A stretch of DNA of 33,228 bases from a virus (IMGVR_UViG_3300027782_000224:1-33228), one strand, 5' to 3'; shown: positions 1 through 27,662, numbered from the stretch's first letter. The notes: generated by a model not told the origin, from the letters alone. Numbers and translations are program-made.

Positions 1-3000
1 TCATAAATTCCACCAGTAATTCTTGCATTACCCTGAACATGTAGTTTTTGTGTTGGACTTGTGGTTCCTATACCGATATTTCCACTATAAGCACCTAAAC
101 TTATTGTTCCATCAGCATTTACATCAATACTTGGAATACCAGAAACATCATTAACTGAGAAAATAGAACCTGATGTTAAGTTATTTGTAATAGAAAATAA
201 CTGACCAGCACTACCTTCCCAACTTAATGTTCCACTATTAAGTTCATATGCTTTTTGAGTAATATGTTGTCCTGTGGAAGACCCAGCAGCAACTAAAAGA
301 TTACCAAGAACATGTAGTTTTTGTAGTGGATTTGTGGTTGCAATACCTACATTACCAGAAACATAAGCACCACCAGTAACCTGAAGTGGTTGTGATGCTG
401 TTCCTGTAGATGTTGCTGCACCAACTATAAAAGTAGAATCATCTTTGAATAGGAAATTAGCATTTCCTGTTGCTGTATTAGAAGCATTTTTATATACAAT
501 TTGATTTGCAGAACCTGCAACAGGTCCAGTAAGACCTTGAGCACCTTGTGCTCCTGCAGTTCCTTGTGCACCTTGAGCACCTGCAGTTCCTTGAGCACCT
601 GCAGTTCCTTGTGCACCTTGTGCTCCTGTAGAACCTGTAGAACCTTGTGCTCCTGCAGTTCCTTGTGCACCTTGTGCTCCTGTAGAACCTGTAGAACCTT
701 GTGCTCCTGCAGTTCCTTGAGCACCTGCAGTTCCTTGAGCACCTGCAGTACCTTGAGCACCTGTAGAACCTGTAGAACCTTGTGCTCCTGCAGTACCTTG
801 AGCACCTTGTGCTCCTGCAGTACCTTGAGCACCTTGAGCACCAACAGAACCTTGTGCTCCTGCAGTACCTTGAGCACCTTGTGCTCCTGCAGAACCTTGT
901 GCACCTTGAGGTCCTTGGAATCCCTGGAATCCTTGAGCACCTTGAGCACCTGCAGAACCTTGAGCACCTTGTGGTCCTTGAGGTCCCCTAACACCAGTAA
1001 GAGTAATAGTCCAAGAAGATGCTGTAGTAGTTCCTAAGTTATAATCAGCAGCAATTGCAAATGTAGTTCCTCCGGTAATTGTAACAATACCTTCAAAAAG
1101 ATTTGCTGCAGTATTAATTGCTCTAACTCTATCACCAGTTACAAAAGCTCCCTGTTGGTTAGTTGTAAGGGTAATAGTACCTGTAGATGCTGGTGTTGCT
1201 GATGTAGTTGAGGTTACATTTGAATACCCAATACCTTGTGAACCTTGTGCTCCTGTAGAACCTTGTGCTCCTGTAGAACCTTGAGCACCTGCAGTTCCTT
1301 GTGCACCTTGAGCACCAACAGAACCTTGTGCTCCTGTAGAACCTTGAGCACCTGCAGTTCCTTGAGAACCTTGTGCTCCTGCAGTACCTTGAGAACCTTG
1401 TGCTCCTGCAGCACCTTGAGCACCTTGAAGTCCTTGGAATCCTTGAGCACCTTGTGCACCTGTTGCACCTTGTGCTCCCACAGCACCTTGAGCACCTTGT
1501 GGTCCTTGGAATCCTTGGGAACCTTGAGCTCCTACAGAACCTTGTGCACCTTGAAGTCCTTGGAATCCTTGGGCACCTTGTGCACCTGTAACACCTTGAG
1601 CACCTTGAGCACCTTGAGGTCCCTGGAATCCTTGGAATCCTTGATTACCTTGTGCACCAACAGCACCTTGTGCACCTTGAGGTCCTTGGAATCCTTGGAA
1701 TCCTTGAGCACCTTGAGCACCCTGAGGTCCTTGGAATCCCTGGAATCCTTGAGCACCTTGTGCACCTTGAGGTCCTTGGAATCCTTGTGCACCTTGAGCA
1801 CCCTGAGGTCCCTGGAATCCCTGGAATCCTTGAGCACCTTGTGCGCCTTGAGGTCCTTGGAATCCTTGTGCACCCTGAGGTCCTTGAGGTCCTTGAGGTC
1901 CTTGGAATCCTTGTGCACCTTGAGGTCCTTGTGGTCCCCTTGCACCTTGTGCTCCTGCAGTTCCTTGAGATCCTTGTGCTCCTGCAGTACCTTGTGCACC
2001 TTGTGCTCCTATTGCACCTTGAGCACCAACAGAACCTTGAGCACCAACAGAACCTTGTGCTCCTGCAGCACCTTGAGCACCTTGAGGTCCTTGAGTACCT
2101 TGAGCACCTGTAGAACCTTGAGCACCTGCAGTTCCTTGAGCACCTGTAGAACCTTGTGCTCCTGCAGAACCTTGTGCTCCTGTAGAACCTTGAGCACCTG
2201 CAGTTCCTTGAGAACCTTGTGCTCCTGCAGTTCCTTGAGCACCCTGAGGTCCTTGGAATCCCTGGAATCCTTGGGCACCCTGAGGTCCTTGGAATCCTTG
2301 GAATCCTTGTGCACCAACAGCACCTTGTGCACCTTGAGGTCCTTGGAATCCTTGAGCACCTTGAGGTCCCTGGAATCCTTGGAATCCTTGTGCACCTTGA
2401 GGTCCCTGGAATCCTTGGAATCCTTGTGCACCTTGAGGTCCTTGGAATCCTTGTGCACCTTGAGGTCCCTGGAATCCTTGGAATCCTTGTGCTCCTGCAG
2501 TACCTTGAGCACCTTGAGGTCCTTGGAATCCTTGAAATCCTTGAGCACCTTGTGCACCTTGTGCACCCTGAGGTCCTTGTGGTCCCTGGAATCCCTGGAA
2601 TCCTTGAGGTCCTTGGAATCCTTGTGGTCCTTGGAATCCTTGAGCCCCTTGTGGTCCTTGGAATCCTTGAGCACCTTGAGCACCTTGAGGTCCTTGGAAT
2701 CCTTGAGCACCTTGAGGTCCTTGGAATCCTTGAGCACCTTGAGGTCCTTGGAATCCTTGAGCACCTTGTGCTCCTGTTGCACCTTGTGCTCCTGTAGAAC
2801 CTTGAGCACCTGTAGAACCTTGAGCTCCTTGAGAACCTTGAGGTCCCTGGAATCCCTGGAATCCTTGTGGTCCCTGGAATCCTTGTGCACCTTGTGCTCC
2901 TGCAGTTCCTTGAGCACCCTGAGGTCCTTGGAATCCCTGAAATCCTTGTGGTCCCTGGAATCCTTGTGCACCCTGAGGTCCTTGGAATCCCTGGAATCCT

Positions 3001-5984
3001 TGAGCACCTTGTGCACCTGCAGTACCTTGAGCACCTTGTGCTCCTGTTGCTCCCTGAGCACCTTGAGGTCCTTGGAATCCTTGTGCACCTTGTGGTCCTT
3101 GGAATCCCTGAAATCCTTGAGCACCTTGTGCACCCTGAGGTCCTTGTGGTCCCTGGAATCCTTGGTTTCCTTGTGCTCCTATTGCACCTTGTGCTCCTGT
3201 AGAACCTTGAGCACCTGTAGAACCTTGAGCACCTGTAGAACCTTGAGGTCCCTGGAATCCCTGGAATCCTTGTGGTCCCTGGAATCCTTGTGCACCTTGA
3301 GCTCCTGCAGTACCTTGAGCTCCTTGAGGTCCTTGGAATCCCTGGAATCCTTGAGCACCTTGTGCACCTTGGGGTCCTTGTGGTCCTTGGTATCCTTGGA
3401 ATCCTTGTGGTCCTTGGAATCCTTGTGCACCCTGAGGTCCTTGGAATCCCTGGAATCCTTGTGCACCCTGAGGTCCTTGGAATCCTTGAGCACCTTGAGC
3501 ACCTTGTGGTCCTTGGAATCCTTGTGCACCCTGAGGTCCTTGTGGTCCCTGGAATCCTTGGTTTCCTTGTGCTCCTATTGCACCTTGAGCACCAACAGAA
3601 CCTTGAGCTCCTGTAGAACCTTGAGCTCCTTGAGAACCTTGAGGTCCCTGGAATCCCTGGAATCCTTGAGCACCTTGAGGTCCCTGAAATCCTTGAGCAC
3701 CTTGAGGTCCCTGGAATCCTTGAGCACCTTGTGCACCTTGAGGTCCTTGTGGTCCCCTTGCACCTTGTGCTCCTGCAGTTCCTTGAGATCCTTGTGCTCC
3801 TGCAGTACCTTGTGCACCTTGAGGTCCTTGGAATCCTTGTGCACCTTGAGCACCTGTATCACCCTTATCTCCAGTTCTTGCAAATGTAATTAATACATCT
3901 GTATTTGAAAATGTAGTTACGCTTCCTGAAACATAAGCACAAGTGACATCATAGTAAGTGGTGTTATCAACTAATGATGCAATGGTATATAAAGCAAAAT
4001 TTTCTGGTGAAAACTTATTAGAAACTTTAAAGTGTCCTTTAATGGTTGATGTAGAATCATCAATAGTTTGTAAAAATGAATCTAAATTAGTTGAGTTATC
4101 ATCAGTATCATTAATGTATAAATGAAGTGCTGTTGAAATATTTGAATCACTAAATCTTAAGTTACCTGTTCCTGGATTTGAGTTAGATGTTGATGAATCA
4201 AAGGTATAATCAAAAGTTTCTCCTCCAAAGTTACCATCTCTACCTTGAGCACCTTGTGCTCCTGTAGCACCTTGAGAACCTTGAGGTCCTTGTGGTCCCC
4301 TTGCACCTTGGAATCCTTGAGCACCTCTTGGTCCTGCTGCACCTTGAACAGAATCATCAAGTGAAATATAATCTATTTGTGTATAGTGATTAGTATTGCC
4401 AGCAGATACATGATAAAGCCTTGCAGAAACAATACCTGCATTAATAAATGGAGCACTATCAATAACGCCAGGTTGGAATTGTGTCCAAGTACTTAATCCG
4501 CTATAAACTTGAACAGTTTCCCATGCAGTTGTGTTCCAGTTATAAAGGTCAACATCAACAGTATGTCCTGAAGATTGTGGATAATTGACATTTAAAGATA
4601 ATCTATTGAATCTTACAACACTTGTAAATCCAACATTAACAATAAATCCTGGAGTAGTTGCAGTATCATAAACTCCAAAGAATCCACTAGTAGTGGTATA
4701 ATCACCAAAAGATGTAACACCTACTGGGTCTGAATTGGTACAATTAAGATTTGCACAAGTTCCATAACTTGGGTCTTTATAAATTGAAGTTGGTAAATAT
4801 ACTGTTGTTTCTGGTGTAGGTCCTTGAGGTCCTTGATATCCCTGAACACCTTGTGGTCCTTGGAATCCCTGGAATCCTTGTGCACCCTGAGGTCCTTGGA
4901 ATCCTTGAGCACCTTGAGCACCTTGTGGTCCTTGATATCCTTGTGCACCTTGAGCTCCTTGTGGTCCTTGAGGTCCAGTAGGTCCTACAGCACCAGCACT
5001 AATGGTAGTTTTGATATATGATTGTGTTCCATCCTCAAAATTAGTGGTTACTGTAATAGTTTGATTTCCTTGAGATGCTATTCTTATTGCATAAAGTTGG
5101 AAAATCAATCTATCAGTAATATTAAGTGTAGTTGCAGTTTGTGTAGTAACTGACCAACTATATTCAGTTAGAGTTGTATTTGTAAAATTCTCAGATAAAG
5201 CACTTGCAATAGTCGTAATACCAGTTCCATTAGATGCACATTTCTCAATAATCATATTGTATTGAACTGTTGCACTAGCCCCACCACCAGTAATAAATGT
5301 ATGAATAGTTGGAATATTGGTTCCTACTGGATAAGTTAAAACTCCAGGGGAGTTTGGTTCTGTAATAAAACTTGCAACTAATACAGGTACATTATCCTGT
5401 GTTAGTGATGTTGTAGCAGTTGATATTCCTCCAGTTGCTGGTTGTTCTAATGCTTTCTTATAACCATTAATGTCTGATGCTTGTGAATATGCAAAGTAAA
5501 AACTTCTTCCAGCATTTCCACCATCTTTACCTTGTGCTCCTTGAGGTCCTTGTGGTCCAATTGCACCTTGAGCACCTTGAGGTCCTACCTGTTGTTCAAA
5601 TGTAATGGTAGCAATACCAGAACCATTAGCAGTTGCAGTAACACCAGCACCTACAATATTCAATGCAGAAATACTATTTGCTGTTCCTACAAGTATTCCT
5701 TCATCATATATGGTAAGACCAGTAATAGCACCTGCTGGAGCAGCACTTACCCAATCAAGTCCTGTTCCTGTAGATGATAATACTTGTCCTAAACTTCCAG
5801 CATCATTGTTTTTATCATATAATACACCTCTAACCCTTAATCCACCATTAACATCTAAGTCAGTAGAAGCAACAGTAGTTCCTATACCAACCTTACCAGT
5901 AACATCTATTACTGTTTGTGATTCTGTATAAGAACTAATTCCTACTTTTAAATTTTTTTGCCTACCACTTAGATTTTTTGCCAT
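1..5984 (-). CDS. Giant collagen-like tail fibre/appendage protein, >=1994 aa, runs off the left edge (not in the ORF track)
   Basis: ATG at 5982-5984 gives MAKNLSGRQKNLKVGISSYTESQTVIDVTGKVGIGTT. The same frame reads GNIGIGTTSPTQKLHVQGNARITGGIY at the left edge. Five Gly-X-Y blocks are separated by globular segments, and GIGTT fibre motifs occur at both ends. Confidence 0.93.
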   Translation of the reverse strand, partial: MAKNLSGRQKNLKVGISSYTESQTVIDVTGKVGIGTTVASTDLDVNGGLRVRGVLYDKNNDAGSLGQVLSSTGTGLDWVSAAPAGAITGLTIYDEGILVGTANSISALNIVGAGVTATANGSGIATITFEQQVGPQGAQGAIGPQGPQGAQGKDGGNAGRSFYFAYSQASDINGYKKALEQPATGGISTATTSLTQDNVPVLVASFITEPNSPGVLTYPVGTNIPTIHTFITGGGASATVQYNMIIEKCASNGTGITTIASALSENFTNTTLTEYSWSVTTQTATTLNITDRLIFQLYAIRIASQGNQTITVTTNFEDGTQSYIKTTISAGAVGPTGPQGPQGAQGAQGYQGPQGAQGAQGFQGPQGAQGFQGFQGPQGVQGYQGPQGPTPETTVYLPTSIYKDPSYGTCANLNCTNSDPVGVTSFGDYTTTSGFFGVYDTATTPGFIVNVGFTSVVRFNRLSLNVNYPQSSGHTVDVDLYNWNTTAWETVQVYSGLSTWTQFQPGVIDSAPFINAGIVSARLYHVSAGNTNHYTQIDYISLDDSVQGAAGPRGAQGFQGARGPQGPQGSQGATGAQGAQGRDGNFGGETFDYTFDSSTSNSNPGTGNLRFSDSNISTALHLYINDTDDNSTNLDSFLQTIDDSTSTIKGHFKVSNKFSPENFALYTIASLVDNTTYYDVTCAYVSGSVTTFSNTDVLITFARTGDKGDTGAQGAQGFQGPQGAQGTAGAQGSQGTAGAQGARGPQGPQGAQGAQGFQGPQGAQGFQGPQGAQGFQGFQGPQGSQGAQGSTGAQGSVGAQGAIGAQGNQGFQGPQGPQGAQGFQGPQGAQGAQGFQGPQGAQGFQGFQGPQGAQGFQGPQGFQGYQGPQGPQGAQGAQGFQGFQGPQGAQGTAGAQGAQGFQGPQGFQGFQGPQGSTGAQGSTGAQGSTGAQGAIGAQGNQGFQGPQGPQGAQGAQGFQGFQGPQGAQGFQGPQGAQGATGAQGAQGTAGAQGAQGFQGFQGPQGAQGFQGPQGFQGFQGPQGAQGTAGAQGAQGFQGPQGFQGFQGPQGSQGAQGSTGAQGSTGAQGATGAQGAQGFQGPQGAQGFQGPQGAQGFQGPQGAQGAQGFQGPQGAQGFQGPQGFQGPQGFQGFQGPQGPQGAQGAQGAQGFQGFQGPQGAQGTAGAQGFQGFQGPQGAQGFQGPQGAQGFQGFQGPQGAQGFQGFQGPQGAQGFQGPQGAQGAVGAQGFQGFQGPQGAQGFQGFQGPQGAQGTAGAQGSQGTAGAQGSTGAQGSAGAQGSTGAQGTAGAQGSTGAQGTQGPQGAQGAAGAQGSVGAQGSVGAQGAIGAQGAQGTAGAQGSQGTAGAQGARGPQGPQGAQGFQGPQGPQGPQGAQGFQGPQGAQGAQGFQGFQGPQGAQGAQGFQGPQGAQGAQGFQGFQGPQGAQGAQGFQGFQGPQGAQGAVGAQGNQGFQGFQGPQGAQGAQGVTGAQGAQGFQGLQGAQGSVGAQGSQGFQGPQGAQGAVGAQGATGAQGAQGFQGLQGAQGAAGAQGSQGTAGAQGSQGTAGAQGSTGAQGSVGAQGAQGTAGAQGSTGAQGSTGAQGSQGIGYSNVTSTTSATPASTGTITLTTNQQGAFVTGDRVRAINTAANLFEGIVTITGGTTFAIAADYNLGTTTASSWTITLTGVRGPQGPQGAQGSAGAQGAQGFQGFQGPQGAQGSAGAQGAQGTAGAQGSVGAQGAQGTAGAQGAQGTAGAQGSTGSTGAQGTAGAQGTAGAQGTAGAQGSTGSTGAQGAQGTAGAQGSTGSTGAQGAQGTAGAQGTAGAQGAQGTAGAQGAQGLTGPVAGSANQIVYKNASNTATGNANFLFKDDSTFIVGAATSTGTASQPLQVTGGAYVSGNVGIATTNPLQKLHVLGNLLVAAGSSTGQHITQKAYELNSGTLSWEGSAGQLFSITNNLTSGSIFSVNDVSGIPSIDVNADGTISLGAYSGNIGIGTTSPTQKLHVQGNARITGGIY
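519..995 (-). repeat. Collagen Gly-X-Y block, ~53 triplets, rich in GAQ/GTA/GST
   Basis: 9-nt periodic sequence running from GVR-GPQ (Gly codon 993-995) to GLT-GPV (Gly codon 525-527). Confidence 0.9.
1233..3872 (-). repeat. Main collagen block, ~293 Gly-X-Y triplets ([15 protein letters not shown])
   Basis: The first Gly codon (3870-3872, GDK) and last Gly codon (1233-1235) are 2637 nt = 293 x 9 apart. No break in register was seen on reading. Confidence 0.88.
4224..4346 (-). repeat. Short collagen block (~13 triplets)
   Basis: [37 protein letters not shown]; bounds approximate. Confidence 0.85.
4818..4986 (-). repeat. Short collagen block (~18 triplets)
   Basis: [18 protein letters not shown]...; bounds approximate. 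Confidence 0.85.
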
Positions 5985-5986
5985 TT

Positions 5987-6328
5987 TTAATTAAGAGTTT
6001 CCAGAACGCTTCCAACAAATTCTAAATTACTTCCATTACTACCAGATAAAATCAATGCATCACCACTTTCAAGAACAAGTTTTCCAGATAAAAGATTGGA
6101 AGTATCATTTCCAGAAATTGGAAAGTTTTTTGCTAATCTTGTGGTAACTGCTATTCCAGCAGTTGTTCTTTGATGAGATAATGTAATATCTTGTGATGTT
6201 GAACCTATATTTGCTACTTGTGCTAACAAAACAACTCCAGTATATCCAACAGGAGCTGTGTATATCCCAACTGGACTTGTTGATACTACTGTAGTTAGTG
6301 TCTTAAAGACATTTAATGCTAATGCCAT
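5987..6328 (-). CDS. Small beta-rich virion protein (113 aa), paralog of 15390..15791
   Basis: MALALNVFKT...GYTGVVLLAQVANIG...GKLVLE...LETLN aligns by eye with the 133-aa protein. Confidence 0.85.
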   Translation of the reverse strand: MALALNVFKTLTTVVSTSPVGIYTAPVGYTGVVLLAQVANIGSTSQDITLSHQRTTAGIAVTTRLAKNFPISGNDTSNLLSGKLVLESGDALILSGSNGSNLEFVGSVLETLN

Positions 6329-6332
6329 TTTA

Positions 6333-8195
6333 TTATTCTCCTCCTAGTGCTAAGATAAATGGGGTCATAGTTGAAAATAAACTTTTAGAATAAAATTTAC
6401 CAGATATAGTTCCTGTTTGTTGGTTGACCACAACACCATCACCAATTCTAAAATTACCTGATTGATCTGTACTTGTAAAAACAACTAGACCACCATTTCT
6501 TCCATCAGTTTCATTTGCTTGAATTGCAACACCACCAGTAGAAGGAAGACAAGTTGCAATTGTTGTTCCTGAACCAATATATTCTAAAGAATGACCTGAT
6601 GCTAATACCCTACTTTGTTTAAAGAATGGAACTGTTGTTCCAAGACCAACAGCATAAGGAACATTTTCATTTACTGTAATAGTACAAATCCCAGAAGAAA
6701 TGGGTGTTGATGATTTAATAGCATAATAAGTTGGAACTAATGCAACAGTAGCTGTTGCAGTATTTATCCCACTATTAGGAGCACTAATTGTAATTGTTGG
6801 AGGAATGTTACTATATCCTCTTCCATTAGATACCATTTCAATTCCAGTCACAGAACCATTAGAAATACTTGCAACAGCAGTTGCACTTACTCCCCAAGAT
6901 GTTGCTGGTGAAGAAATAGTAACTGTTGGTGTTGATGTATAACCTGTTCCCCCAGAACCAACTATAATATTATCTACTGTATAATATAAAGTTTCAAAAT
7001 AAACTACTTGTCCATCATAAGGTCTAATAACATTAATTTTAGCAGTTCCACCAGATACATAAACTTGATTTGGAGTTGTTGATACTCCAACATTACAAGT
7101 AAATTGATTTAATGCTGGGATAGATTTAACCTCAAATACATATCCTTTATCACCTGAAGGATATGTTACAGAACCACCAATACCAGTACAAGTAAAATTT
7201 AATCCATTTAAAGTAACACCCATTCCAACACTAAAGTTGTGATTGGATGAAGTTGTAATAGTAATTAATCCTGTTGTATTGTTATAAACTGCAGTTGAAA
7301 TGCCTAAAGTTGGAACATTTAAATCTAATACAAAAGTATCTGCATTTGCTGCTGCAGCACTGGTAATAATTCCTGTATATTTTCTTGGTCCTATGCCATC
7401 TGCAACAAGAGCATAATTACCAAAAGAAGAGTTTGAGTTTGTTAAATCACAAGCAGCACCAGAACCACAAAAAACAGCAGTATCATTACAAATTGTAAAT
7501 AATGAAACTAACTGAGCATATCCTTCATTTGTAATTGAAACTCCAATACCACCTTGATTGTATTGTGTATAAGAGTCAAGAACCATAGATTTTAATGGTC
7601 CAATAGCATTATTACCATCAATCTTCAGACCAGTGCTATTAGGAATAAAGTTAGTGCAGTTCTGAACATAAGGAGATTGTGCAACATATCTAATAGCACT
7701 TGGATCAAAAGAAAAAATAGCACCAGTATTTGCTGCCCCAACAAAGGACATTTCAGCAATATAATTTCCAGCACCAACATAAAAAAGGTCTCCAGTATTT
7801 TGTGGAGTTATTGTAACTTCTCTTAAACTATCTCCTACAATGCTTACTTGGTCAGGTAAAGTTATTGGATTATTTTCTAAGTAAGTTCCAGCACTAACCT
7901 TAATAACTGTTCCTGCTGTTGCAATTCCAACTGCTCCTGAGATAGTTGCTTTTGCATCTCCAAGTTTTTTTCCTGTGTTTGTATCTGATCCGTCTCTTGT
8001 AACATATAAAATATTAGTAACAGTTGTTCCAGCACCTAATCTTACGATATCTGTGCCTATACCAGTTCTTTCTCTACGAGCATATAACTCTGCATCATAA
8101 GTGTTTAATCCCAGTTCTCCCAAAGGCAAGTCATTTACCGTTGGTCTCTTTCCAGGAACTGCAGATCGTTTAATTCTAATTATAGGTGCAGCCAT
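6333..8195 (-). CDS. Virion structural/fibre protein (620 aa): Mtd_N-like N-terminus plus pectin-lyase-like beta-helix
   Basis: N-terminal IRIKRS...PT...L.LGELGLNTYD. YVTRDGSDTNTG...KATI...VIKVSAGTY.E is typical of a beta-helix start. SD GAGGA lies upstream. Confidence 0.8.
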   Translation of the reverse strand: MAAPIIRIKRSAVPGKRPTVNDLPLGELGLNTYDAELYARRERTGIGTDIVRLGAGTTVTNILYVTRDGSDTNTGKKLGDAKATISGAVGIATAGTVIKVSAGTYLENNPITLPDQVSIVGDSLREVTITPQNTGDLFYVGAGNYIAEMSFVGAANTGAIFSFDPSAIRYVAQSPYVQNCTNFIPNSTGLKIDGNNAIGPLKSMVLDSYTQYNQGGIGVSITNEGYAQLVSLFTICNDTAVFCGSGAACDLTNSNSSFGNYALVADGIGPRKYTGIITSAAAANADTFVLDLNVPTLGISTAVYNNTTGLITITTSSNHNFSVGMGVTLNGLNFTCTGIGGSVTYPSGDKGYVFEVKSIPALNQFTCNVGVSTTPNQVYVSGGTAKINVIRPYDGQVVYFETLYYTVDNIIVGSGGTGYTSTPTVTISSPATSWGVSATAVASISNGSVTGIEMVSNGRGYSNIPPTITISAPNSGINTATATVALVPTYYAIKSSTPISSGICTITVNENVPYAVGLGTTVPFFKQSRVLASGHSLEYIGSGTTIATCLPSTGGVAIQANETDGRNGGLVVFTSTDQSGNFRIGDGVVVNQQTGTISGKFYSKSLFSTMTPFILALGGE

Positions 8196-8255
8196 TCATC
8201 CTCATAGTTGGTATATACCCTAAAGAACCCTTATATAAGAGTTCTAGTTATTTAT
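8196..8255 (-). promoter_or_regulatory. T4-type late promoter (ATAAATA, 8249-8255) followed by a structured leader
   Basis: Near-perfect 22-bp palindrome at 8224-8245, perfect GGTATATACC palindrome at 8210-8219, SD GAGGA at 8199-8203. Confidence 0.7.
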
Positions 8256-8440
8256 TCAAAATCTCCTTCAGATTTTACTCCTCTTTTAGGTTTCTTCAAT
8301 TTTTCATTTTCTGTAGTCAATTCACTTATTACAGATGATAAAGAAGTAATTTTAGCTTCATATATGATTACCTGATTAACAAATTCAGAAACCTTTTTTT
8401 GATATGTAGTTAACAAAGTTTGGTAATCAATATCATTCAT
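8252..8440 (-). CDS. Small coiled-coil protein (62 aa)
   Basis: Heptad-like YEAKITSLSSVISELTTENEKLKK; start overlaps the stop of the upstream gene. Confidence 0.75.
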   Translation of the reverse strand: MNDIDYQTLLTTYQKKVSEFVNQVIIYEAKITSLSSVISELTTENEKLKKPKRGVKSEGDFE

Positions 8441-10269
8441 CAGAAGGTTCCTGCATCTACAGTGATGTTATTCATAAATCTTTCTGAACCAGTACAAGAA
8501 ATAACTTGTGAAGTTCCTGCACAATCAGTAACCCAAAGAGCACCAATTTCAACTGCAGCATATGCATTTGCAGTCAATACATTATTAGATTCAGAAACAT
8601 CAGAAGAAATACCAATTCTTCCTGCACTGTCATCCCAGTAAACTGCTGCTTTCTTTGCTGCTCCATTATACCAGTTAAAGAGAATACCAATATCAATATT
8701 TAAATCTGTTGTTGGTGGGATTAATGTAGTTCCAGATTGAACTAATCCCAAATCAATCAAACTATCTTCAACTTTTAAGTTTGTGGTTTCTACTTCAGTA
8801 GTAGCACCTAAAACATAAAGATTGCCACTAACTGTTAAATTACTAGAAACACCTACATTTCCAGTTCCTGCAGAAAGTGTAATTGCAGTTACACCATCAC
8901 TTGCTTGAATATCATTACCACCAACTTTAATATCACCAGCAAATGTAGTAAGAGTATTGCTACTTAAAGTAATATTTGTATTACCATCACTTGCTTGAAT
9001 ATCATTACCACCAACTTTAATATCACCAGCAAATGTAGTAAGAGTATTGCCACTTAAAGTAATATTTGTATTACCATCACTTGCTTGAATATCATTGCCA
9101 TTAATCCTGAGGTCTCCTTCAACAGTAAGATTATTGGTTGATGGATTAAACTTTAATCCAGCATCAACCCTAATGGTTTCTCCTGTTGTAGTAGTAGAAT
9201 TGCTAACAAATGGAACATAATAATCTGCATCTGTTGAAGTTGCAGTTGTATTAATTGTTGTTGCAGTTGTTGCAGTTCCAGCAATTGCTCCAACAAAACT
9301 TGAAGCAGTTATAATTCCAGAAAATATTGCATTATTCCATCTTTTCCCAGAACCACCTAAATTATAGGTTGCATCAGTATTTGGAAGAATATCTGAATTA
9401 ACATCTGCAGCAAATACAACATTATCAGTATTGCTATCTCCAAGATTAATTGTTCCACCTTGGAAAGTTACATTACCAACAAAAGTAGAAATACCAGCAA
9501 CACTTAAGTTTCCATTAATATTAACTGATTTTTCTACTCCTAATCCACCACCCAAAACCAATGAACCATTATTATATGCAGTTGAATCAACTGCACTACT
9601 AATAGTGGTGATGCCACTAATTAATACTTGTCCATCAGCACGAAGAACACCATCTACAATTAAATCTCCACCAATATCTGCTGTAGTTCCAACTCCCAAA
9701 TAAGTAGCTTGTATACCAGCACCATTAACTGTAAGACCATTATTATCAACCACCAACCCATTGAATGTAGAAAGTCCAGTTACATAAAGATTTGCTCCAA
9801 TATTAACTGATTTAGTTACTCCTAAACCACCTCTAATTTGAACTGCACCATTTGAATATGTAGTGGAATCTGTGGTGTCAGTAAAAGTAGTAATACCACT
9901 AAAAGATGGGTTGGAAATACTATTTGACCAACTTAGTACACCATTTCCATCATTAGATAAAATATTTCCAGATGCACCTTGGGTTCCTGGAAGAGTATAA
10001 GTTAAATCTCCAGCAAGATTATCTGGTGATTTTAATGCAATATAATTAGTACCATTATTTGTTCCTTCTACAACTTTTACTGAACTGCCAACAGATGCAG
10101 TTTCTTTGGTCCAGTATCTATGTGAACCAAAGAACTTGTTGTTGTTTGTGGTACTATCAATACCTACATAAAAATCATAACCATCTGTAGTAAGGGCTGG
10201 TTCACCTGCTCTAAGTCCTGGCAGATTTGCTAAAGCACCCCTTTTAAATTGAAGAATTGGTGCTGTCAT
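8440..10269 (-). CDS. Tail fibre-like protein (609 aa) with Mtd_N-like N-terminus and beta repeats
   Basis: N-terminal LQFKRG...LP.LRAGEPALTTD, repeated NGA(V/L)..GGLGV.KSVNI motifs, a 30-aa tandem repeat, and C-terminal DAGTF. Confidence 0.82.
   Translation of the reverse strand: MTAPILQFKRGALANLPGLRAGEPALTTDGYDFYVGIDSTTNNNKFFGSHRYWTKETASVGSSVKVVEGTNNGTNYIALKSPDNLAGDLTYTLPGTQGASGNILSNDGNGVLSWSNSISNPSFSGITTFTDTTDSTTYSNGAVQIRGGLGVTKSVNIGANLYVTGLSTFNGLVVDNNGLTVNGAGIQATYLGVGTTADIGGDLIVDGVLRADGQVLISGITTISSAVDSTAYNNGSLVLGGGLGVEKSVNINGNLSVAGISTFVGNVTFQGGTINLGDSNTDNVVFAADVNSDILPNTDATYNLGGSGKRWNNAIFSGIITASSFVGAIAGTATTATTINTTATSTDADYYVPFVSNSTTTTGETIRVDAGLKFNPSTNNLTVEGDLRINGNDIQASDGNTNITLSGNTLTTFAGDIKVGGNDIQASDGNTNITLSSNTLTTFAGDIKVGGNDIQASDGVTAITLSAGTGNVGVSSNLTVSGNLYVLGATTEVETTNLKVEDSLIDLGLVQSGTTLIPPTTDLNIDIGILFNWYNGAAKKAAVYWDDSAGRIGISSDVSESNNVLTANAYAAVEIGALWVTDCAGTSQVISCTGSERFMNNITVDAGTF
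8893..9100. repeat. 90-bp tandem repeat, ~2.3 copies, in frame (30 aa)
   Basis: Units start at 8893, 8983 and 9073. The two full copies differ at one base. They encode DIQASDGNTNITLS(G/S)NTLTTFAGDIKVGGN. Confidence 0.92.
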
Positions 10270-10293
10270 TTTTTTTTTACTCTATTTTATTAT

Positions 10294-10301
10294 TATTTAT
10301 A
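10294..10301 (-). promoter_or_regulatory. T4-type late promoter TATAAATA
   Basis: Exact consensus ~25 nt upstream of the ATG at 10269. Confidence 0.75.
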
Positions 10302-10303
10302 TG

Positions 10304-10594
10304 TTAAAAACTTCCTGCATCTAAATCAATCCTATTATCTAAATCAACATCTAATACATTTTCAAAATCTGTTGGAAGTCCAGGTTGAATAGTTTCTGTA
10401 GTTGCTGATGATGAAAGAACTTTATCTGGATTTACAAATTCATATTTTTGTGTTGTTGCATTGTACATCAACACATATTGATCATTTACATTAGTGGAAT
10501 CTATATCTATAAGGTCTGATAGTTTGTTTGCCACGTTAACTAAAACCTCTGTTTCTAAATTGCTAAAAAGTTCTACTTCTACTTCTATTGTCAT
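10304..10594 (-). CDS. Acidic virion protein (96 aa)
   Basis: LSDLIDID...YVLMYNATTQKYEF fibre-type motif; ends DLDAGSF; coupled to the upstream stop. Confidence 0.8.
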   Translation of the reverse strand: MTIEVEVELFSNLETEVLVNVANKLSDLIDIDSTNVNDQYVLMYNATTQKYEFVNPDKVLSSSATTETIQPGLPTDFENVLDVDLDNRIDLDAGSF

Positions 10595-10923
10595 TATGAT
10601 GCAGTTCCTTTTACTATAAGGGTTCCTTCTACAGCTTTTGTAGTTATTCCATTACTTGTAATAAGTAAGTCCCAAATATACCTACCAATTGGTATTTGTG
10701 ATGTAGTAATTTTGGACATAGTTAATCTGACCACACCAGTATTATATGGAAATAATGGTGTAACTAAAAAGGTATAATAAGTATTTGCTGTATAATGTTT
10801 TCTTACTTTAGCTGTAAATGTGTAAGTATCTGTGCCAATTGCTGCACCATCAGTTTTTAATTTTAAAGAAGTGACAAAATCAGCACCTTTATCTATAGTT
10901 AAATTAACTGAGGATACTGCCAT
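10594..10923 (-). CDS. Small beta-sandwich virion protein (109 aa), possible fibre adaptor
   Basis: LTIDKGADF...AKVRKHY...GVVRLTM...GRYIWDLLI...VEG.LIV pattern, typical of small phage adaptor proteins. Confidence 0.75.
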   Translation of the reverse strand: MAVSSVNLTIDKGADFVTSLKLKTDGAAIGTDTYTFTAKVRKHYTANTYYTFLVTPLFPYNTGVVRLTMSKITTSQIPIGRYIWDLLITSNGITTKAVEGTLIVKGTAS

Positions 10924-10936
10924 TGGTTTTTATTTT

Positions 10937-10944
10937 TATTTATA
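10937..10944 (-). promoter_or_regulatory. T4-type late promoter TATAAATA
   Basis: Exact consensus overlapping the upstream stop codon, 13 nt before the ATG at 10923. Confidence 0.75.
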
Positions 10945-11872
10945 GATTAATATTTGGAGGATATCCTGCACTTATAAATGGGTATTTTCTTTGAGGACCC
11001 CAAACCAATCTTACTACACCAGCATAACCATTTGAACCAACAAGGTTGGCACCTGTTGCACTATTTGAAGCTGCTCCTCCTCCACCTCCATTTCTACCAC
11101 CAACACCATTTTCTCCATTATAACCACTACCAGAACCTGCAGTTCCCCCTGAGTTTACTCCTCCAGCACCACCTGAAACAAAAGCACTCCCTTCAGGTCC
11201 AACTCCACCACCTCCATAACCTTTTCCAGTACCACTATATCCTGCTCCACCGCCACCACCTCCACCAACTCCTGCAGTACCATTAGCACCATTTGTATTC
11301 CCACCAGTTCCGCCAATTCCAGCATATCCACCAGCTCCTCCACCACCTCCAGCATTTGGATTTACTACAGGTTCGGTATCTCCTCCACCAGTTCCTCCAC
11401 TGCCACCATTACCTCCTCCATAATTTGTAACACCAACACCTATACTATAAGTTCCACCATTTATTGGATTATCTCCTTCTGCAGGATCAAATCTAAAAAT
11501 ACCACCAAGTCCTCCATTTGCTTGTAAAAGAAGTGTTCCACTACCTATTGTTCCTCTAGTAATGGAACTAATTCCTCCATTTGCACCATCCCTAGTACTA
11601 GCACCTCCAGTACCTGCATCACCTACAGTTATAGTTAAAGTTTCTCCTGGATACACATTAAATTGTCCATAACATAAAGCACCTCCACCACCTCCTTGAT
11701 TTCCTTGTTGTCTTCCTGGGTCTGCACCTGCACCTCCTCCTCCACCACCTATACAGACAGCAGAAATTTTGGTTACATTATATGGAACAGTAATTGTAGT
11801 AATACCAGACGAATATAAACTTTGCTTTGTATTATCATTATGAGACCCTGCGAGGATTGATATAACTGCCAT
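10940..11872 (-). CDS. Glycine-rich domain protein (310 aa), candidate receptor-binding tip/adhesin
   Basis: TVP.NVTKISAVCIGGGGGG...GGGGGAL...VYPGETLTITVG..G.GG...G..GVVRLVW is the typical phage Gly-rich domain pattern. Confidence 0.8.
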   Translation of the reverse strand: MAVISILAGSHNDNTKQSLYSSGITTITVPYNVTKISAVCIGGGGGGAGADPGRQQGNQGGGGGALCYGQFNVYPGETLTITVGDAGTGGASTRDGANGGISSITRGTIGSGTLLLQANGGLGGIFRFDPAEGDNPINGGTYSIGVGVTNYGGGNGGSGGTGGGDTEPVVNPNAGGGGGAGGYAGIGGTGGNTNGANGTAGVGGGGGGGAGYSGTGKGYGGGGVGPEGSAFVSGGAGGVNSGGTAGSGSGYNGENGVGGRNGGGGGAASNSATGANLVGSNGYAGVVRLVWGPQRKYPFISAGYPPNINL

Positions 11873-11875
11873 AAT

Positions 11876-14800
11876 TTATCTTATTCCTGCTCCAGAAATT
11901 ACAAATACATTAGTTGCAACACAAACAAGAGTTGCAAGTCCTCTTTGTTCAAAAGTTGCTCCTGCTAATGTGATAGATGAACCTGCAATATATACAGTAA
12001 CACCAGTAACTACAAATGTTTGATTTCCTGAAGTATTATTGAATAATGTAACATTAAATCCTGTAGATAATCCTGTAGGAATAGTCCAAACAGCACTTGC
12101 ACCACTATTAGAAACAATTTTTCCATTATCACCAGATACTAAAGTATAATTTCCATTTTGAGTTGTTACTGCAAATCCTACTGCTGCAGAAGAAGTCCAC
12201 TGAGTTCCAGTATTAGTAGATTGAAGAATTTGACCTGATGACCCTTGTTGTCCAAGGGAATCATAAAGTGCTCCAGTAATATATGCACTACCTTGAACTT
12301 GTAGTTTTTGTGTTGGATTTGTAGTTCCAATACCAAGATTTCCATCACCAGTAAGTATCATCTTATTGATGAGAGATGTACTCACTCCTACTTGCTCAAA
12401 AGTGCCATTAGTTTGTCCAGAACCAACAATAGTATCAAATCTAATTTCTCCTGCAGCTAAACGAATTCTATCTGGACCACTAACACCACCAACAATATTA
12501 TAAGAATCGTTACCTTTAAACATTAAAAGTTCTGATCTTTGTCCTAATCCACTATAATCATATATTCTTTCACCAATATAGGTATGTGTATATTTTCTAT
12601 ATAGATTAATATCTTCATCTTCACCAAAAGCATTTACACCATCATTACAAGTTCCTCTAAAAGCAATATAATTTGACGTAGTGGAAATACCAACTCTTAT
12701 ATTACCATCAACTTGTGTGTCCCCAACAACTTGAAGTGTTGCTTGAGGATTTGTGGTTCCAATACCAAAATTTCCATTAACTGTTGCTGTTGATGAATTA
12801 AGGTCAAGAATTTTAGTATAAGTTCCACCAGAATTCTTCGGATTAAATGTAATTGAACCACTATTGGTTGAATTAAATATTCCAAAGATACCATCAGTTC
12901 CACCATTTGCAATAATATCTCCAGCAGCATCTGTAGTATTAGTAATATAAAGAGTGTTTCCTAGTGTGGTGATACCAGTTATATTTGCAGTACCAAATAC
13001 GTGAAGTTTTGATGTTGGCGCAATTCCAATTCCCAAATTACCAGTAGAAGCATCATAAGCAAAAACTCTTGTGCTTGCTGCCTTAGCAGTTTGGTTACTT
13101 CCAAGTGCTCCAACCATTACTGGATAAAGAACTGATGTTGAAGTATCATCAATAGCATTAATTAAATTGGAAGGTCCTGGTGTACCTGCACCTTGAGGTC
13201 CTTGGAATCCTTGAGGTCCTGATGCACCTTGAGCACCTTGAGGTCCTTGAGGTCCTGATGCACCTTGGGCACCTTGTGGTCCTAATGCACCTTGGGCACC
13301 TTGTGGTCCTTGTGGTCCTGATGCACCTTGGGCACCTTGTGGTCCTTGTGGTCCTTGTGGTCCTCTTACTCCTTGAGGTCCTGGAACTATACTAGGATTT
13401 CCTGGGTCTCCTTGATATCCTTGAGCACCTTGAGGTCCTTGTGGTCCTGATGTACCTTGAGGTCCAATACCCTGTGGTCCTTGGAATCCTTGAGGTCCTC
13501 TTGCTCCTTGAGGTCCTGCAGTTCCTTGAACACCTTGAGGTCCTTGCAATCCTTGAGTACCTTGAGGTCCTTGGAATCCTTGAGCACCTTGAGGTCCTGC
13601 AGTTCCTTGATCACCTTGAGCACCTTGTGGTCCTTGAGGTCCTTGGAATCCTTGTGGTCCTTGTGGTCCTTGTAATCCAATCCCTTGAGGTCCTTGGTAT
13701 CCTTGAGCACCTTGAGGTCCTTGAGGTCCCCTTGCACCTTGAGCACCTTGTGGTCCTTGTGGTCCTTGTGGTCCTATTGGCCCAACAATTCTACCTACAT
13801 CTACCCAGTTGGTTCCATTATAAATCCATAAATCTCCAGTATCTACAGCAATTACACCATCTCCAGTTGACTGAGGATACCAAGGATATACAGAATCATT
13901 TGCAGTTAAAGTTGTGTGTGGTGCTGATGTTGTAACTGAAGGAACAGTTCCAACAATTCTAACAGATGTTCCTGCAACACCTTGAGCACCTTGTGGTCCT
14001 TGTGGTCCCCTTGCACCTTGAGCACCTTGTGGTCCTTGAGGTCCTTGGAATCCTTGTGCACCTTGTGGTCCTTGATAACCTTGAGGTCCTCCAATTCCCT
14101 GTGGTCCTTGTGCACCTTGTGGTCCTTGTGGTCCCTGGGGTCCTTGATATCCCTGAACACCTTGTGGTCCTTGGAATCCTTGATATCCTTGGGGTCCTTG
14201 AAGTCCTTGAGCACCTGCAGCTCCTTGTCCTTGTGGTCCTTGGAATCCTTGTGGTCCTTGGAATCCTTGTGGTCCCCTTGGTCCTTGTGGTCCTTGAACA
14301 CCTTGAGGTCCTTGAACACCTTGAGGTCCTTGAAGTCCTTGGAATCCTTGATATCCTTGGAATCCCTGGAATCCTTGATATCCTTGTGCACCTTGTGCTC
14401 CTTGTGCACCTTGAGGTCCCTGGAATCCTTGAGGTCCTTGAGGTCCTTGAGGTCCTTGAGGTCCTTGGAATCCTTGATTACCTTGTGCGCCTTGAGGTCC
14501 TTGATATCCCTGAGGTCCCTGAGGTCCTCTTACTCCTTGAGGTCCCTGAAATCCTTGGAATCCTTGAGGTCCTTGAGGTCCTTGATATCCTTGAGGTCCT
14601 TGAACACCTTGAGGTCCTCTAACGCCTTGAGGTCCTTGAAGTCCTTGGAATCCTTGGAATCCTTGAGGTCCTTGAGCACCTGTTTGACCTGAAGCATATG
14701 ACCAAACAAAACCTAATCCTGGTCCTAATGATTTTAAAAATTGGTCCTGAGTTGGAGCACCTACACTTCCAGTACTATCAATAATATCAGAGCTAATTCT

Positions 14801-15352
14801 AACTGTAGAAACTCCAATATCTAGTCCATATTGTGGATTTGTGCTACCAATACCCAATCTTTGAGTACTTGGAATGAATACTAATGTATTTGGAGCAATT
14901 TCAGTTATTGAAGAAATACCACCTGCTCTTTCTGTAGTAAATCCAAGATATCTTGGTCTAGAATCTGTGGGTTCTAGTACATCAGTAGCAGAATAAATTG
15001 TAATAGTAGCAATACCAAGTCCTGGTGATACTGTACCTGCAACACTAACGCCTGGACCTACAAAATTAAGTTGGGTAATGGAACCAATTCCAGCATTACC
15101 GCCAATTATATTTCCTTCATCTCTAACTGTTATTCCTTTTTCTACTATACCTGGAGGAATAGCTACCCAATACCTTTCTCCTGGGTATTCTTGTAAACTA
15201 ACCAACATGTATTGGGAACCAACTGGTAAGTTGTTTCCTGGGGGGTCACCCAAATTTGGCTCAGCTTGATTTAAACCAAGATATTGATATCTATCTGCTG
15301 TTAATCTTGATTGAGGAGTTCTTATAACTCTTCTGCTTAAATACTTTGCCAT
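11876..15352 (-). CDS. Collagen-like tail fibre/appendage protein (1158 aa)
   Basis: Two Gly-X-Gln blocks, several GN(L/F)GIGTTNP..L.V.G motifs, and a C-terminal [10 protein letters not shown]...[15 protein letters not shown] domain. Confidence 0.92.
13170..13785 (-). repeat. Collagen block 2 of the 1158-aa protein (with short interruptions)
   Basis: GPIGPQ...GAGTPGPS with GIG and [10 protein letters not shown] interruptions; bounds approximate. Confidence 0.85.
13964..14689 (-). repeat. Collagen block 1 of the 1158-aa protein (~80 triplets)
   Basis: [12 protein letters not shown]...GVAGTS, dominated by [12 protein letters not shown]. Confidence 0.87.
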
Positions 15353-25297: not shown

Positions 25298-26023
25298 ATG
25301 TCTATTAGTACTGAAACTCAAGCACTCCTTGACTTATATAATCAAAAACTTTCTTTAGATACTCAACAATTATCTCAGATTAATACAGTCCAGACTGGAT
25401 ATACAATTACTACAGGAATTGGATCAACTGACCAAATTAAAATCTGGGGTCCAACAGATGTAATAGCAAACTATAATCCTCCAATTGTAAAATTAGATAA
25501 TAGAATTATTGAAATTAATGATCAAATTAATGTTTTACAGCAATTAGTTTTAGATATAGGAGAAGAAGCAAATGCTGTAGGTTGTGGAACTACTGCGTTT
25601 TTTATTGGATTTAGTACAGTTACTATTGTTAGTGACCAATTGAATTATAGAGGATATACATTTACTACCCCAAATCCATTTTCTGTAATTACTGGAACTT
25701 TAATCAATAGTAATTCTGGAATTGGCACAGAAGATTATATTACACAACCAGTACTTGGAGGGTATTTTGGTCCTATTGGTACAAATGGTATATGTGCTGG
25801 ATATGCAACATCTATTACAAACTTAGAATCACAAATTACAACTTTACAAAATGAAAGAAATCCATTAATAGAAAAAGTTAATTTTTTAAAAGCAGGAAGG
25901 TCACAATATGAACTACAAAATTATGGATTGGAACAATCAAAAGTACAAGTAAATAGTGCCATTAGTGTTAGTAATTCAATTGTAGGATTTCTCCAAGACC
26001 CTGCAAATGCAGAATGGTTATAA
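25298..26023 (+). CDS. Hypothetical protein with coiled-coil segments (241 aa), probably late/virion
   Basis: Only clear plus-strand gene; two heptad segments; late promoter upstream. Confidence 0.82.
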   Translation: MSISTETQALLDLYNQKLSLDTQQLSQINTVQTGYTITTGIGSTDQIKIWGPTDVIANYNPPIVKLDNRIIEINDQINVLQQLVLDIGEEANAVGCGTTAFFIGFSTVTIVSDQLNYRGYTFTTPNPFSVITGTLINSNSGIGTEDYITQPVLGGYFGPIGTNGICAGYATSITNLESQITTLQNERNPLIEKVNFLKAGRSQYELQNYGLEQSKVQVNSAISVSNSIVGFLQDPANAEWL

Positions 26024-26087: not shown

Positions 26088-26567
26088 TTAGTTTTGGGTC
26101 TTTTTATTTTTACCTCTGTAAGTTTCTGTTTGTGCATGACAGTTGGGACAAAGTAATCTCAAATTTTCTAATCTATTATCAGTATGAATGCCATTAATAT
26201 GATCTAATTCAATAGGAGTTAATTGTCCCATCCACTCTGTTATACCACAACACTCACACTTATGTTGTTTAAGACCTTCTATGATAAGACGCTGCTTAAG
26301 TTTATGAGATGGATATGTATATTCTCTATCATCAACTAAGAGTGTTTCTAATGATTTTTTGTTCCAATTATGTGTTTTACCTTTTAGGTGACCTTGGCCA
26401 GTAAAATGAGAATCATCAAGATTTAAAGTTTTTATTCTTTTTTGAGAAACTTTATAATTTCCACCTGCTTCTTTTAAATTGAGTTTGGATAAAACTTGTC
26501 TAATACTTGTGGAGGTTCTGACTGCTTCTATAAACTGCTCATCAGTATAAGTTCTTGGTTTTGCCAT
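26088..26567 (-). CDS. Free-standing HNH endonuclease (putative homing endonuclease)
   Basis: CECC...ELDHING...DNRLENLRLLCPNCH (HNH plus Zn ligands) with a helical, HTH-like N-terminus. Confidence 0.92.
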   Translation of the reverse strand: MAKPRTYTDEQFIEAVRTSTSIRQVLSKLNLKEAGGNYKVSQKRIKTLNLDDSHFTGQGHLKGKTHNWNKKSLETLLVDDREYTYPSHKLKQRLIIEGLKQHKCECCGITEWMGQLTPIELDHINGIHTDNRLENLRLLCPNCHAQTETYRGKNKKTQN

Positions 26568-26575
26568 AATGGTAT

Positions 26576-26609
26576 AGGTAAAGGTATTATTATTTATATA
26601 CCTTTACCT
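26576..26609 (-). promoter_or_regulatory. 12-bp perfect hairpin with a late promoter (TATAAATA, 26591-26598) over its loop
   Basis: Arms aggtaaaggtat (26576-26587) and atacctttacct (26598-26609), 8 nt from the HNH ATG. Confidence 0.8.
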
Positions 26610-26993: not shown

Positions 26994-27048
26994 ATTCTAG
27001 CATCAGGGGCAGCAGTTTTCAAGTTTGGTGGACAGTTCCTGAACTGTC
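26994..27048 (-). promoter_or_regulatory. Sigma70-type early promoter with an upstream palindrome, embedded in the 3' end of a CDS
   Basis: TTGAAA (27017-27022)-17 nt-TAGAAT (26994-26999) with TGn; GACAGTTC-CT-GAACTGTC at 27031-27048. Confidence 0.72.
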
Positions 27049-27662
27049 TGCTTGAGGGTATTGATTTGCTCTTGTTGTTCTTTGATTGCTTCTACAAGAA
27101 CTGCAGTAAGGTTCTGATAATGAAGGACTTTAATTCCTTCTGTATTTTCTTGAACTAAATCTGGTATTACTTGTTCTACTTCCTGAGCAATCATTCCAAT
27201 TTGATGAACTTCATAATCAGTTCTATCATACTCTACACCCCTCAGTTGCAAAACTTTGTCCAATGAATTTTCAAGTGGTTTTATATTAGTTTTTAATTTA
27301 ATATCAGATGTTGTTTGTATTGGTAATCCATGATACTTCCAAACCCCAGATAAATTACCATTTATAGAAGATAAACCAAAACTTGGTGCTGCACTATTAT
27401 GGGCTGGTTCTGCATTTGCTTGTCCACCAAGACCAGTTTTAAATCCAAACAAATGTTCTAATCCTGAAATAACATGAGCACCAATTCCATTATGAAGTCC
27501 TATTTGATTTGTGATTGCAAGGTGATTATTAATACCAAAAGTTTGTAAACTAAATGGAACTGTTGGGTCCATAGAAGGCCAAAGGTCCACACCAGCAATA
27601 GGAGGAGCACCTGCTAATCCTACTTGAATAGATTCTGTTTGTATAGTATTAATGTGTGCCAT
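27003..27662 (-). CDS. Short His-rich beta protein with a C-terminal Peptidase_S74 intramolecular chaperone (219 aa)
   Basis: TSDIKLKTNI...L.GV.Y...GMIAQEVEQVIPDLV...Y..L.AVLVEAIKEQ followed by a coiled coil. Confidence 0.88.
   Translation of the reverse strand: MAHINTIQTESIQVGLAGAPPIAGVDLWPSMDPTVPFSLQTFGINNHLAITNQIGLHNGIGAHVISGLEHLFGFKTGLGGQANAEPAHNSAAPSFGLSSINGNLSGVWKYHGLPIQTTSDIKLKTNIKPLENSLDKVLQLRGVEYDRTDYEVHQIGMIAQEVEQVIPDLVQENTEGIKVLHYQNLTAVLVEAIKEQQEQINTLKQTVQELSTKLENCCP

Follow-up and report, generated by a model that had tools for sequence, protein, structure and literature searches.

The main finding of this work was the identification, at the edge of a contig from an uncultured phage, of a modular fibre gene carrying 293 uninterrupted Gly-X-Y triplets, a block that is real and represents an extreme member of a recurrent class of phage collagen-like fibres. 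The window analysed here, 33,228 nt long, is the entire contig, and on its minus strand the stretch from 5984 to 3 translates into 1,994 codons without a stop, the reading frame being cut at its 3' end by the contig edge. We hypothesize, with a probability of about 0.6, that the gene encodes a modular three-chain virion fibre, in which an anchored N-terminus would be followed by a thin, flexible and optional collagen tether bearing small domains and used for reversible capture of the host. The fibre gene, its upstream neighbours and a second collagen gene are arranged as follows.

3..5984, minus strand: modular fibre gene encoding 1,994 aa or more, truncated at the contig edge (stop-free ORF with PHROG tail-fibre matches)
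5586..5984, minus strand: N-terminal region, residues 1-133, conserved across the gene slot (63 viral loci), likely the virion anchor
5514..5585, minus strand: collagen block 1, 8 triplets (translation)
4995..5513, minus strand: non-collagen domain D2, residues 158-330 (73% to a domain in locus L075)
4815..4994, minus strand: collagen block 2, 20 triplets (translation)
4344..4814, minus strand: non-collagen domain D3, residues 391-547 (4 loci; weakly like carbohydrate-binding beta-sandwiches)
4218..4343, minus strand: collagen block 3, 14 triplets (translation)
3873..4217, minus strand: non-collagen domain D4, residues 590-704, a predicted mostly-beta bead (model pLDDT 86)
1236..3872, minus strand: main collagen block, 293 uninterrupted triplets (GAQ 109, GFQ 65, GPQ 55)
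996..1235, minus strand: non-collagen spacer D5, about 80 aa (translation)
519..995, minus strand: collagen block 5, 53 triplets (translation)
3..518, minus strand: D6, a non-collagen module containing GNxGIGT repeats and truncated at the contig edge (weak PHROG tail-fibre matches)
5987..6328, minus strand: 113-aa gene upstream of the fibre gene, PSSM2_294 orthologue (61% identity), kept upstream in most loci
6333..8195, minus strand: 620-aa tail-fibre-like upstream gene, PSSM2_293 orthologue (70% to S-SRM01, 61% to P-SSM2)
11876..15352, minus strand: second collagen gene (1,158 aa; six blocks totalling 144 triplets), sharing the GFQ/GPQ chemistry of the fibre gene

As proposed in the initial annotation, translation of the main block (nt 3872 to 1236, 2,637 nt, 879 residues) gives 293 in-register triplets with no interruption, no frameshift and no Gly at X or Y, which makes it a collagen-like sequence under the definition of at least six contiguous Gly-X-Y triplets without Gly at those positions. 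The end of the block had been correctly placed at 3872, whereas 1233, given for the other end, lies 3 nt beyond 1236, where the clean run stops; one extra triplet, GIG, follows directly after the run and reaches nt 1227. The reading frame of at least 1994 aa and the four further collagen blocks announced there were also recovered, with 8, 20, 14 and 53 triplets, so that all five blocks comprise 388 triplets, and the ORF matches the collagen family PF01391 with an E-value of 1.8e-173. A chance origin of the run can be ruled out, since four of the five other frames contain no Gly-X-Y run longer than 2-4 triplets; the fifth frame carries the second collagen gene. That the gene had been missed by the ORF track proved right as well, likely because the ORF runs off the contig end, and it is listed only if open-ended ORFs are allowed. 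A letter-for-letter copy of the protein sequence is present in the ESM Atlas, and the gene has therefore been called elsewhere. A contig of the public sequencing run X1 extends 120 nt beyond the window start and, since 35 of those letters match the array, another collagen block probably starts just past this edge.

The count of 293 rests on short-read assembly, and no database record among those aligned spans the array. It is built of only 42 distinct 9-mers, and 69% of its 21-mers and 36% of its 33-mers recur within it; moreover, the contig ends inside a run in 15 of the 30 collagen-bearing relatives described below, and two near-identical loci (L013 and L016) differ by an exact gap of 126 nt, either real or made by assembly. 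These observations would be expected if the array existed and the assembly had inflated or scrambled its length, an explanation that we consider quite improbable in view of the remaining data. The longest exact repeat inside the array is 95 nt and no 99-mer recurs, which rules out a simple large duplication by mis-assembly. Parts of the first 10 kb were found in 20 public runs, half or more of it in 8, and those runs that carry labels are freshwater, lake, river, sediment or aquatic; runs with small shares were left out of the comparison. In X1, which may be the source sample of the window, 203 contigs matched positions 1-6400 at 99% identity or more, 119 of 273 fitted two places, and several break points coincided with those of a graph (k=31) derived from the window sequence, which predicts 193 pieces over the same region, 109 of them multi-place. 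With each piece placed once, the ratio of observed to simulated depth over the array was 0.81, with an r of 0.82 over 30 bins (0.40 inside the array), while other placement assumptions gave ratios of 0.33-3.2 and a poorer fit (lower r). Exact-match contigs reached every one of the 30 bins for X1, and 28 of them for each of the runs X3 and X9. Three relatives (L026-L028), identical over 8,300 nt, each carry runs of 216 and 219 triplets. No independent assembly of the same array was found among viral contigs, and the sole metagenome match (L070), showing no difference from the window, is the window's own contig and hence no independent evidence. An array of roughly 2.64 kb is thus well supported by the short-read data, a support that extends to its approximate length, the exact triplet number being not proven.

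The position of the gene offers further information on its likely role. The order of the 620-aa gene, the 113-aa gene and the fibre gene is that of PSSM2_293, PSSM2_294 and PSSM2_295, and the fibre N-terminus aligns with PSSM2_295 at 35% over 85 aa (E 1e-9), being 35-40% identical to the N-termini of P-SSM2 orf295, S-SRM01 QPX48296 and B3 gp331. The first of these is listed as tail-fibre-like (PMC1079782). The neighbourhood contains tail-fibre-like and baseplate genes, a gp5-like hub and a CP12 gene (PF02672; 30219-30431, minus strand) embedded among the baseplate and tail genes, and the presence of CP12 amid structural genes supports a cyanobacterial host. This tail-cluster context, together with the fact that the closest cultured relatives infect Synechococcus and Prochlorococcus, suggests that the source was probably an uncultured, freshwater, T4-like cyanophage of picocyanobacteria. 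The conserved N-terminus would then likely anchor the fibre to the tail or baseplate. A collagen-like protein may also sit elsewhere on a virion, as illustrated by gp12 of SPP1, a collagen-like capsid trimer (PMC7602432); a head or neck decoration serving adhesion or drag seems nevertheless improbable for a gene lying amid tail-fibre and baseplate genes in the PSSM2_295 slot, even if those annotations were themselves made by similarity.

Other features of the window were recorded along with this context. The second collagen gene has 45 exact 31-mers in common with the main array, so that the two could exchange sequence, and it is directly followed by a gene for a 310-aa glycine-rich protein (PF21722; 10940-11872, minus strand), a possible tip adhesin. 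In a 609-aa gene, a 90-nt unit is repeated in tandem at 8893-9100, in frame and with 98% identity over 2.3 copies, which suggests a recent duplication. Beside the gp5-like hub lies a 219-aa gene with a Peptidase_S74 chaperone domain (27003-27662, minus strand), and the minus-strand structural cluster is interrupted by an HNH endonuclease (26088-26567, minus strand) and a lone 241-aa ORF (25298-26023, plus strand). Octamers of the sequence TATAAATA, which we take to be the T4 late-promoter consensus, occur on the minus strand at 26598, 20112, 16029, 10944 and 10301, several of them just upstream of structural genes; none was found directly before the fibre collagen gene.

Searches with the N-terminus retrieved 63 viral loci. 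The start of the slot could be located in 58 of them, with collagen present in 30 and absent from the other 28; the loci are redundant, with 34 distinct N-termini, 18 of them with collagen. Long runs occur in this slot, with 220 and 225 triplets in L024 and L025 and 169, 174 and 73 in L038, and six further loci (L013-L018) encode proteins of more than 3,400 aa with up to six collagen blocks. In 155 other loci, 15 distinct runs of 100 or more triplets were counted, the longest with 225, and thus 293 is the longest run among the loci retrieved. No run of 100 or more triplets was present among 170 listed proteins of 1,096-3,490 aa (the best 120 of 142, plus 50 of 50), a set in which genes cut by contig ends are under-represented and whose longest run has 95. 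A complete slot protein of 4,372 aa was observed in L110 (about 1,150-14,270); it comprises six collagen blocks, and its end is S74-like. The domains D3, D4 and D6 are common to the fibre protein and to L024 and L026, where they stand in another order. The Peptidase_S74 chaperone is a mark of trimeric phage fibres. It was detected at the C-terminus of L024 and L026 (E 4e-16) and not of L038 and L022, that is, in two of the four C-termini scanned.

The arrays of these relatives also allowed the Gly register to be followed between genomes. Of 432 mismatches in three array comparisons (91 and 41 between L024 and L025, and 300 between L024 and L026), none lies at position 1 or 2 of a Gly codon, and the gaps among the L024, L025 and L026 arrays are whole triplets, one of them split 3+6 by the aligner. 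These alignments, made on the relatives and not on the array of the window itself, show selection on the Gly register in the relatives' arrays; variants in other runs were synonymous in 18 of 36 cases, too few to show selection on the fibre gene. Judged from such comparisons, the slot consists of a conserved N-terminal anchor and an exchangeable, optional shaft of varying length, an insert that would grow and shrink by whole triplets.

The composition of the main block bears on whether, and how, such a shaft would fold. Gln occupies 245 of the 293 Y positions and Pro none, and Pro is found 55 times at X (19%), a placement typical of prokaryotic and viral collagens (PMC3368898). Only 5 of the 879 residues are charged (0.6%), with a single KGD, and 65 are Phe. 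Salt bridges of the KGD/KGE type have been proposed as a general clamp of such collagens, and the stability of long bacterial and viral triple helices has been ascribed to salt bridges, glycosylated Thr or a high Pro content (PMC11923368); the former two are almost lacking in the main block. Because Pro does not occur at Y and charged residues are so few, the main block cannot owe its stability to hydroxyproline or to salt bridges, and prolyl hydroxylation was accordingly ruled out as a stabiliser; the relatives are nearly Pro-free. This lack of the known stabilisers would suit triplets that adopt another extended state, as single polyproline-II chains, a PPII bundle or a loose spacer, and form no stable triple helix. 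We regard this as unlikely, because Gly at exactly every third residue and indels of whole triplets correspond to the constraint imposed by the core of a triple helix; a beta-solenoid would be disfavoured by the 55 Pro at X. Under the preferred reading, three chains would wind into collagen triple helices between the folded domains. Stability would then likely come from Pro or Ala at X, from Gln at Y, from axial Gln-Phe contacts and from the folded domains in the role of register clamps.

As to the Gln-Phe contacts, all 66 aromatic X residues of the main block are preceded by Gln at Y, compared with 55.0 and 59.1 in two types of shuffles (p 0.0002 and 0.0006). This placement is that of the axial Y-X' Gln-Phe pair, which in peptides adds 2.13 C and has been seen in a crystal structure, and the lateral pair is slightly destabilising, with -0.75 C (PMC9599227); every GFQ also forms the lateral pair. 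The pattern may be a by-product of the repeat grammar: of the 48 triplets without Gln, 45 have GAQ as the next triplet, a place where Pro, too, is rarer than expected (2 against 9). As such a grammar may by itself yield the pattern, and as units that arose by duplication do not count separately, the p-values of the shuffles overstate its significance. Gln before an aromatic residue was significant by itself in one of six other runs; six runs in relatives, when pooled, gave 47 of 54 against 36.8 expected, with one of the six below expectation, and in the second collagen gene 21 of the 26 aromatic X residues are preceded by Gln. The 15 distinct relative runs of 100 or more triplets have no aromatic X at all, so that Gln-Phe contacts are not required by the family, whose common trait is Gln at Y. 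The runs of 169 and 174 triplets in L038 (7135-10851) consist almost wholly of GTQ and GIQ, with no Pro, aromatic residue or charge, and pose a harder stability puzzle than the main block of the window. As a tentative and rather doubtful idea, we put forward that this cyanophage tether of 250-335 nm is a natural, fibrillar-length collagen in which 66 axial amide-pi contacts between Gln and aromatic residues act as a zipper and take the place of hydroxyproline and salt bridges. In the literature searched, Gln-Phe contacts are described only for designed peptides.

The collagen blocks are separated by small non-collagen domains. D2 shows feature-based similarity of 0.93-0.95 to viral hypothetical clusters, had no match in PDB, Pfam or PHROG, and gave an empty result in a separate protein search; single-sequence structure prediction of D2-D3 reached a pLDDT of 33, too low for use. 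The profile of D3 matches domains of a glucanase and a chitosanase (2rv9 and 4zxe), which we take to be CBM32, at a weak E of 0.03, and GH114_assoc appeared below the cut-off in all four members, so that sugar binding by D3 is a lead drawn from one weak and several sub-threshold matches. D4 was modelled from 28 sequences as a mostly beta structure with a pLDDT of 86, and this model had 45 matches in BFVD at E<=0.001, mostly predicted viral collagen-repeat proteins, from phages (S-CAM7 and S-H34 included) as well as from Klosneuvirus, Indivirus and Marseillevirus. No clear match to D4 was found among solved structures (none with Foldseek at E<=0.001, best Z 6.5), a result that does not by itself establish a new fold, and no Pfam family was assigned to it. 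Neither D3 nor D4 had a tblastn match among GenBank phages, and D5 had no family match. D6-type modules recur behind collagen blocks in relatives. Over the whole fibre protein, Pfam reported Collagen alone; PfN is absent, and no propeptide domains were detected by it in the 1,994 aa, the protein's own C-terminal tip lying beyond the contig end.

Previous studies with phage collagens allow a mode of action to be proposed. At a rise of 2.88 A per residue (PMC3368898), the 879 residues of the main block correspond to a contour of 253 nm, and all five blocks to 335 nm. The length of about 250 nm given in the initial annotation therefore stands, and it exceeds the tail sheath of the nearest cultured relative, S-SRM01 (about 100 nm; PMC8557907), whereas the word rod suits it less well: gp61 of phage phi24B, a trimer forming a lateral fibre, has a flexible collagen-like shaft that cryo-EM did not resolve, and the authors think that a trigger signal cannot be relayed through it (bioRxiv 10.64898/2026.04.10.717836). 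For this reason, reversible capture is favoured over triggering, and we propose that the collagen blocks form a thin, flexible tether of about 250 nm in the main block and 335 nm in all five, along which small folded domains would be strung, some of them possibly binding host sugars, and that the fibre catches and holds picocyanobacterial cells reversibly at a distance and does not serve as an injection trigger. In the literature searched, virion proteomics, EM or folding data on this protein were not found.

The same dimensions had been taken to suggest a very long search or tether filament for dilute water or for passing a cyanobacterial sheath. Read as a rigid rod that evolved to search dilute water or to penetrate the sheath of filamentous cyanobacteria, this proposal has in its favour the contour of 253 nm beside a tail sheath of about 100 nm, and the freshwater and river metagenomes in which the sequence is carried, and yet we consider it very unlikely. 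The nearest cultured relatives infect the unicellular Synechococcus and Prochlorococcus and lack collagen in this slot, which leaves the sheath idea unsupported; P-SSM2, from the open ocean, S-SRM01 and B3 are among them, so a need for length in dilute water is not borne out either. Collagen shafts on virions, by analogy with the known cases, would be flexible, and an additional 0.1-0.3 um on a host of about 0.5 um would enlarge a diffusion-limited capture radius by no more than some tens of percent, even if drag is neglected. Rather than a rod of this kind, the tether proposed above could plausibly provide a longer reach as an optional, putative aid to adsorption.

Among known systems, the closest in chemistry are gp20 and gp23 of S-CRM01, a cultured freshwater cyanomyophage, annotated as tail fibres with collagen repeat, which have GFQ, GPQ and GTQ triplets, Gln at 61-66% of Y and low charge; they differ in their shorter runs (56 and 66, and 50 triplets), in their gene slot and in their non-collagen domains, which are not homologous. 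The closest in position, P-SSM2 orf295 (1,170 aa), S-SRM01 QPX48296 (219 aa) and B3 gp331 (1,230 aa), share the gene order and a homologous N-terminus, and none has a collagen run of six or more triplets. EPclA, encoded by E. coli prophages, has been shown to be a triple helix of three chains with a melting temperature of 42 C (PMC3368898). The E. coli O157 prophage proteins EPclA-D and phi24B gp61 are likewise phage-encoded, with Pro at X and not at Y, but their collagen spans at most 322 aa, rich in charge, without Phe and accompanied by PfN/PfC (PMC3368898), as opposed to 879 aa, 0.6% charged, with 65 Phe here. By its sequence, then, the fibre protein is not an EPclP, having no PfN and the opposite charge and Phe content, nor is it a fibrillar collagen, with Pro at Y in 0 of 293 triplets. 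The designed GPQGFO peptides (PMC9599227) have the same axial Gln-Gly-Phe arrangement at one pair site in a hydroxyproline-rich synthetic host, unlike the 66 putative sites of a natural sequence with no Pro at Y.

Type I collagen has 338 triplets. The values in the cited literature are 330 and 344, and the closeness of the main block to this length had been presented as a surprise. That emphasis was not sustained: a collagen-like protein of Trichodesmium erythraeum has 383 uninterrupted triplets (PMC2443231), prokaryotic collagen-like chains reach up to 2,000 triplets, with interruptions (PMC11923368), and the relatives reach 216-225. The Trichodesmium protein resembles the main block as an unbroken run of fibrillar length on the prokaryotic side, and differs in being cellular, longer and no modular phage fibre. 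Collagen repeats in the host-recognition clusters of T4-like phages have also been noted (PMC1079782, PMC7029224). Length alone is thus a modest result, since collagen-like phage fibres are known and runs of such length exist elsewhere, and the distinctive point of the main block is its chemistry. Long Gln-rich phage collagens were not found described in the literature searched, which covered few subscription papers. Assemblies often break within genes of this kind, as in 15 of the 30 collagen-bearing loci, and the genes then tend to be missed.

With the main block it can be tested directly whether stability requires more than Gln at Y and Gln-Phe contacts. If true, the Gln-aromatic zipper would add a third mode of stabilisation for long triple helices, and would provide recombinant collagen with a template that carries no charge and needs no modification. 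For the phages themselves, the slot provides a natural series of 0 to 293 triplets behind one anchor, with which it may be asked what reach does for adsorption.
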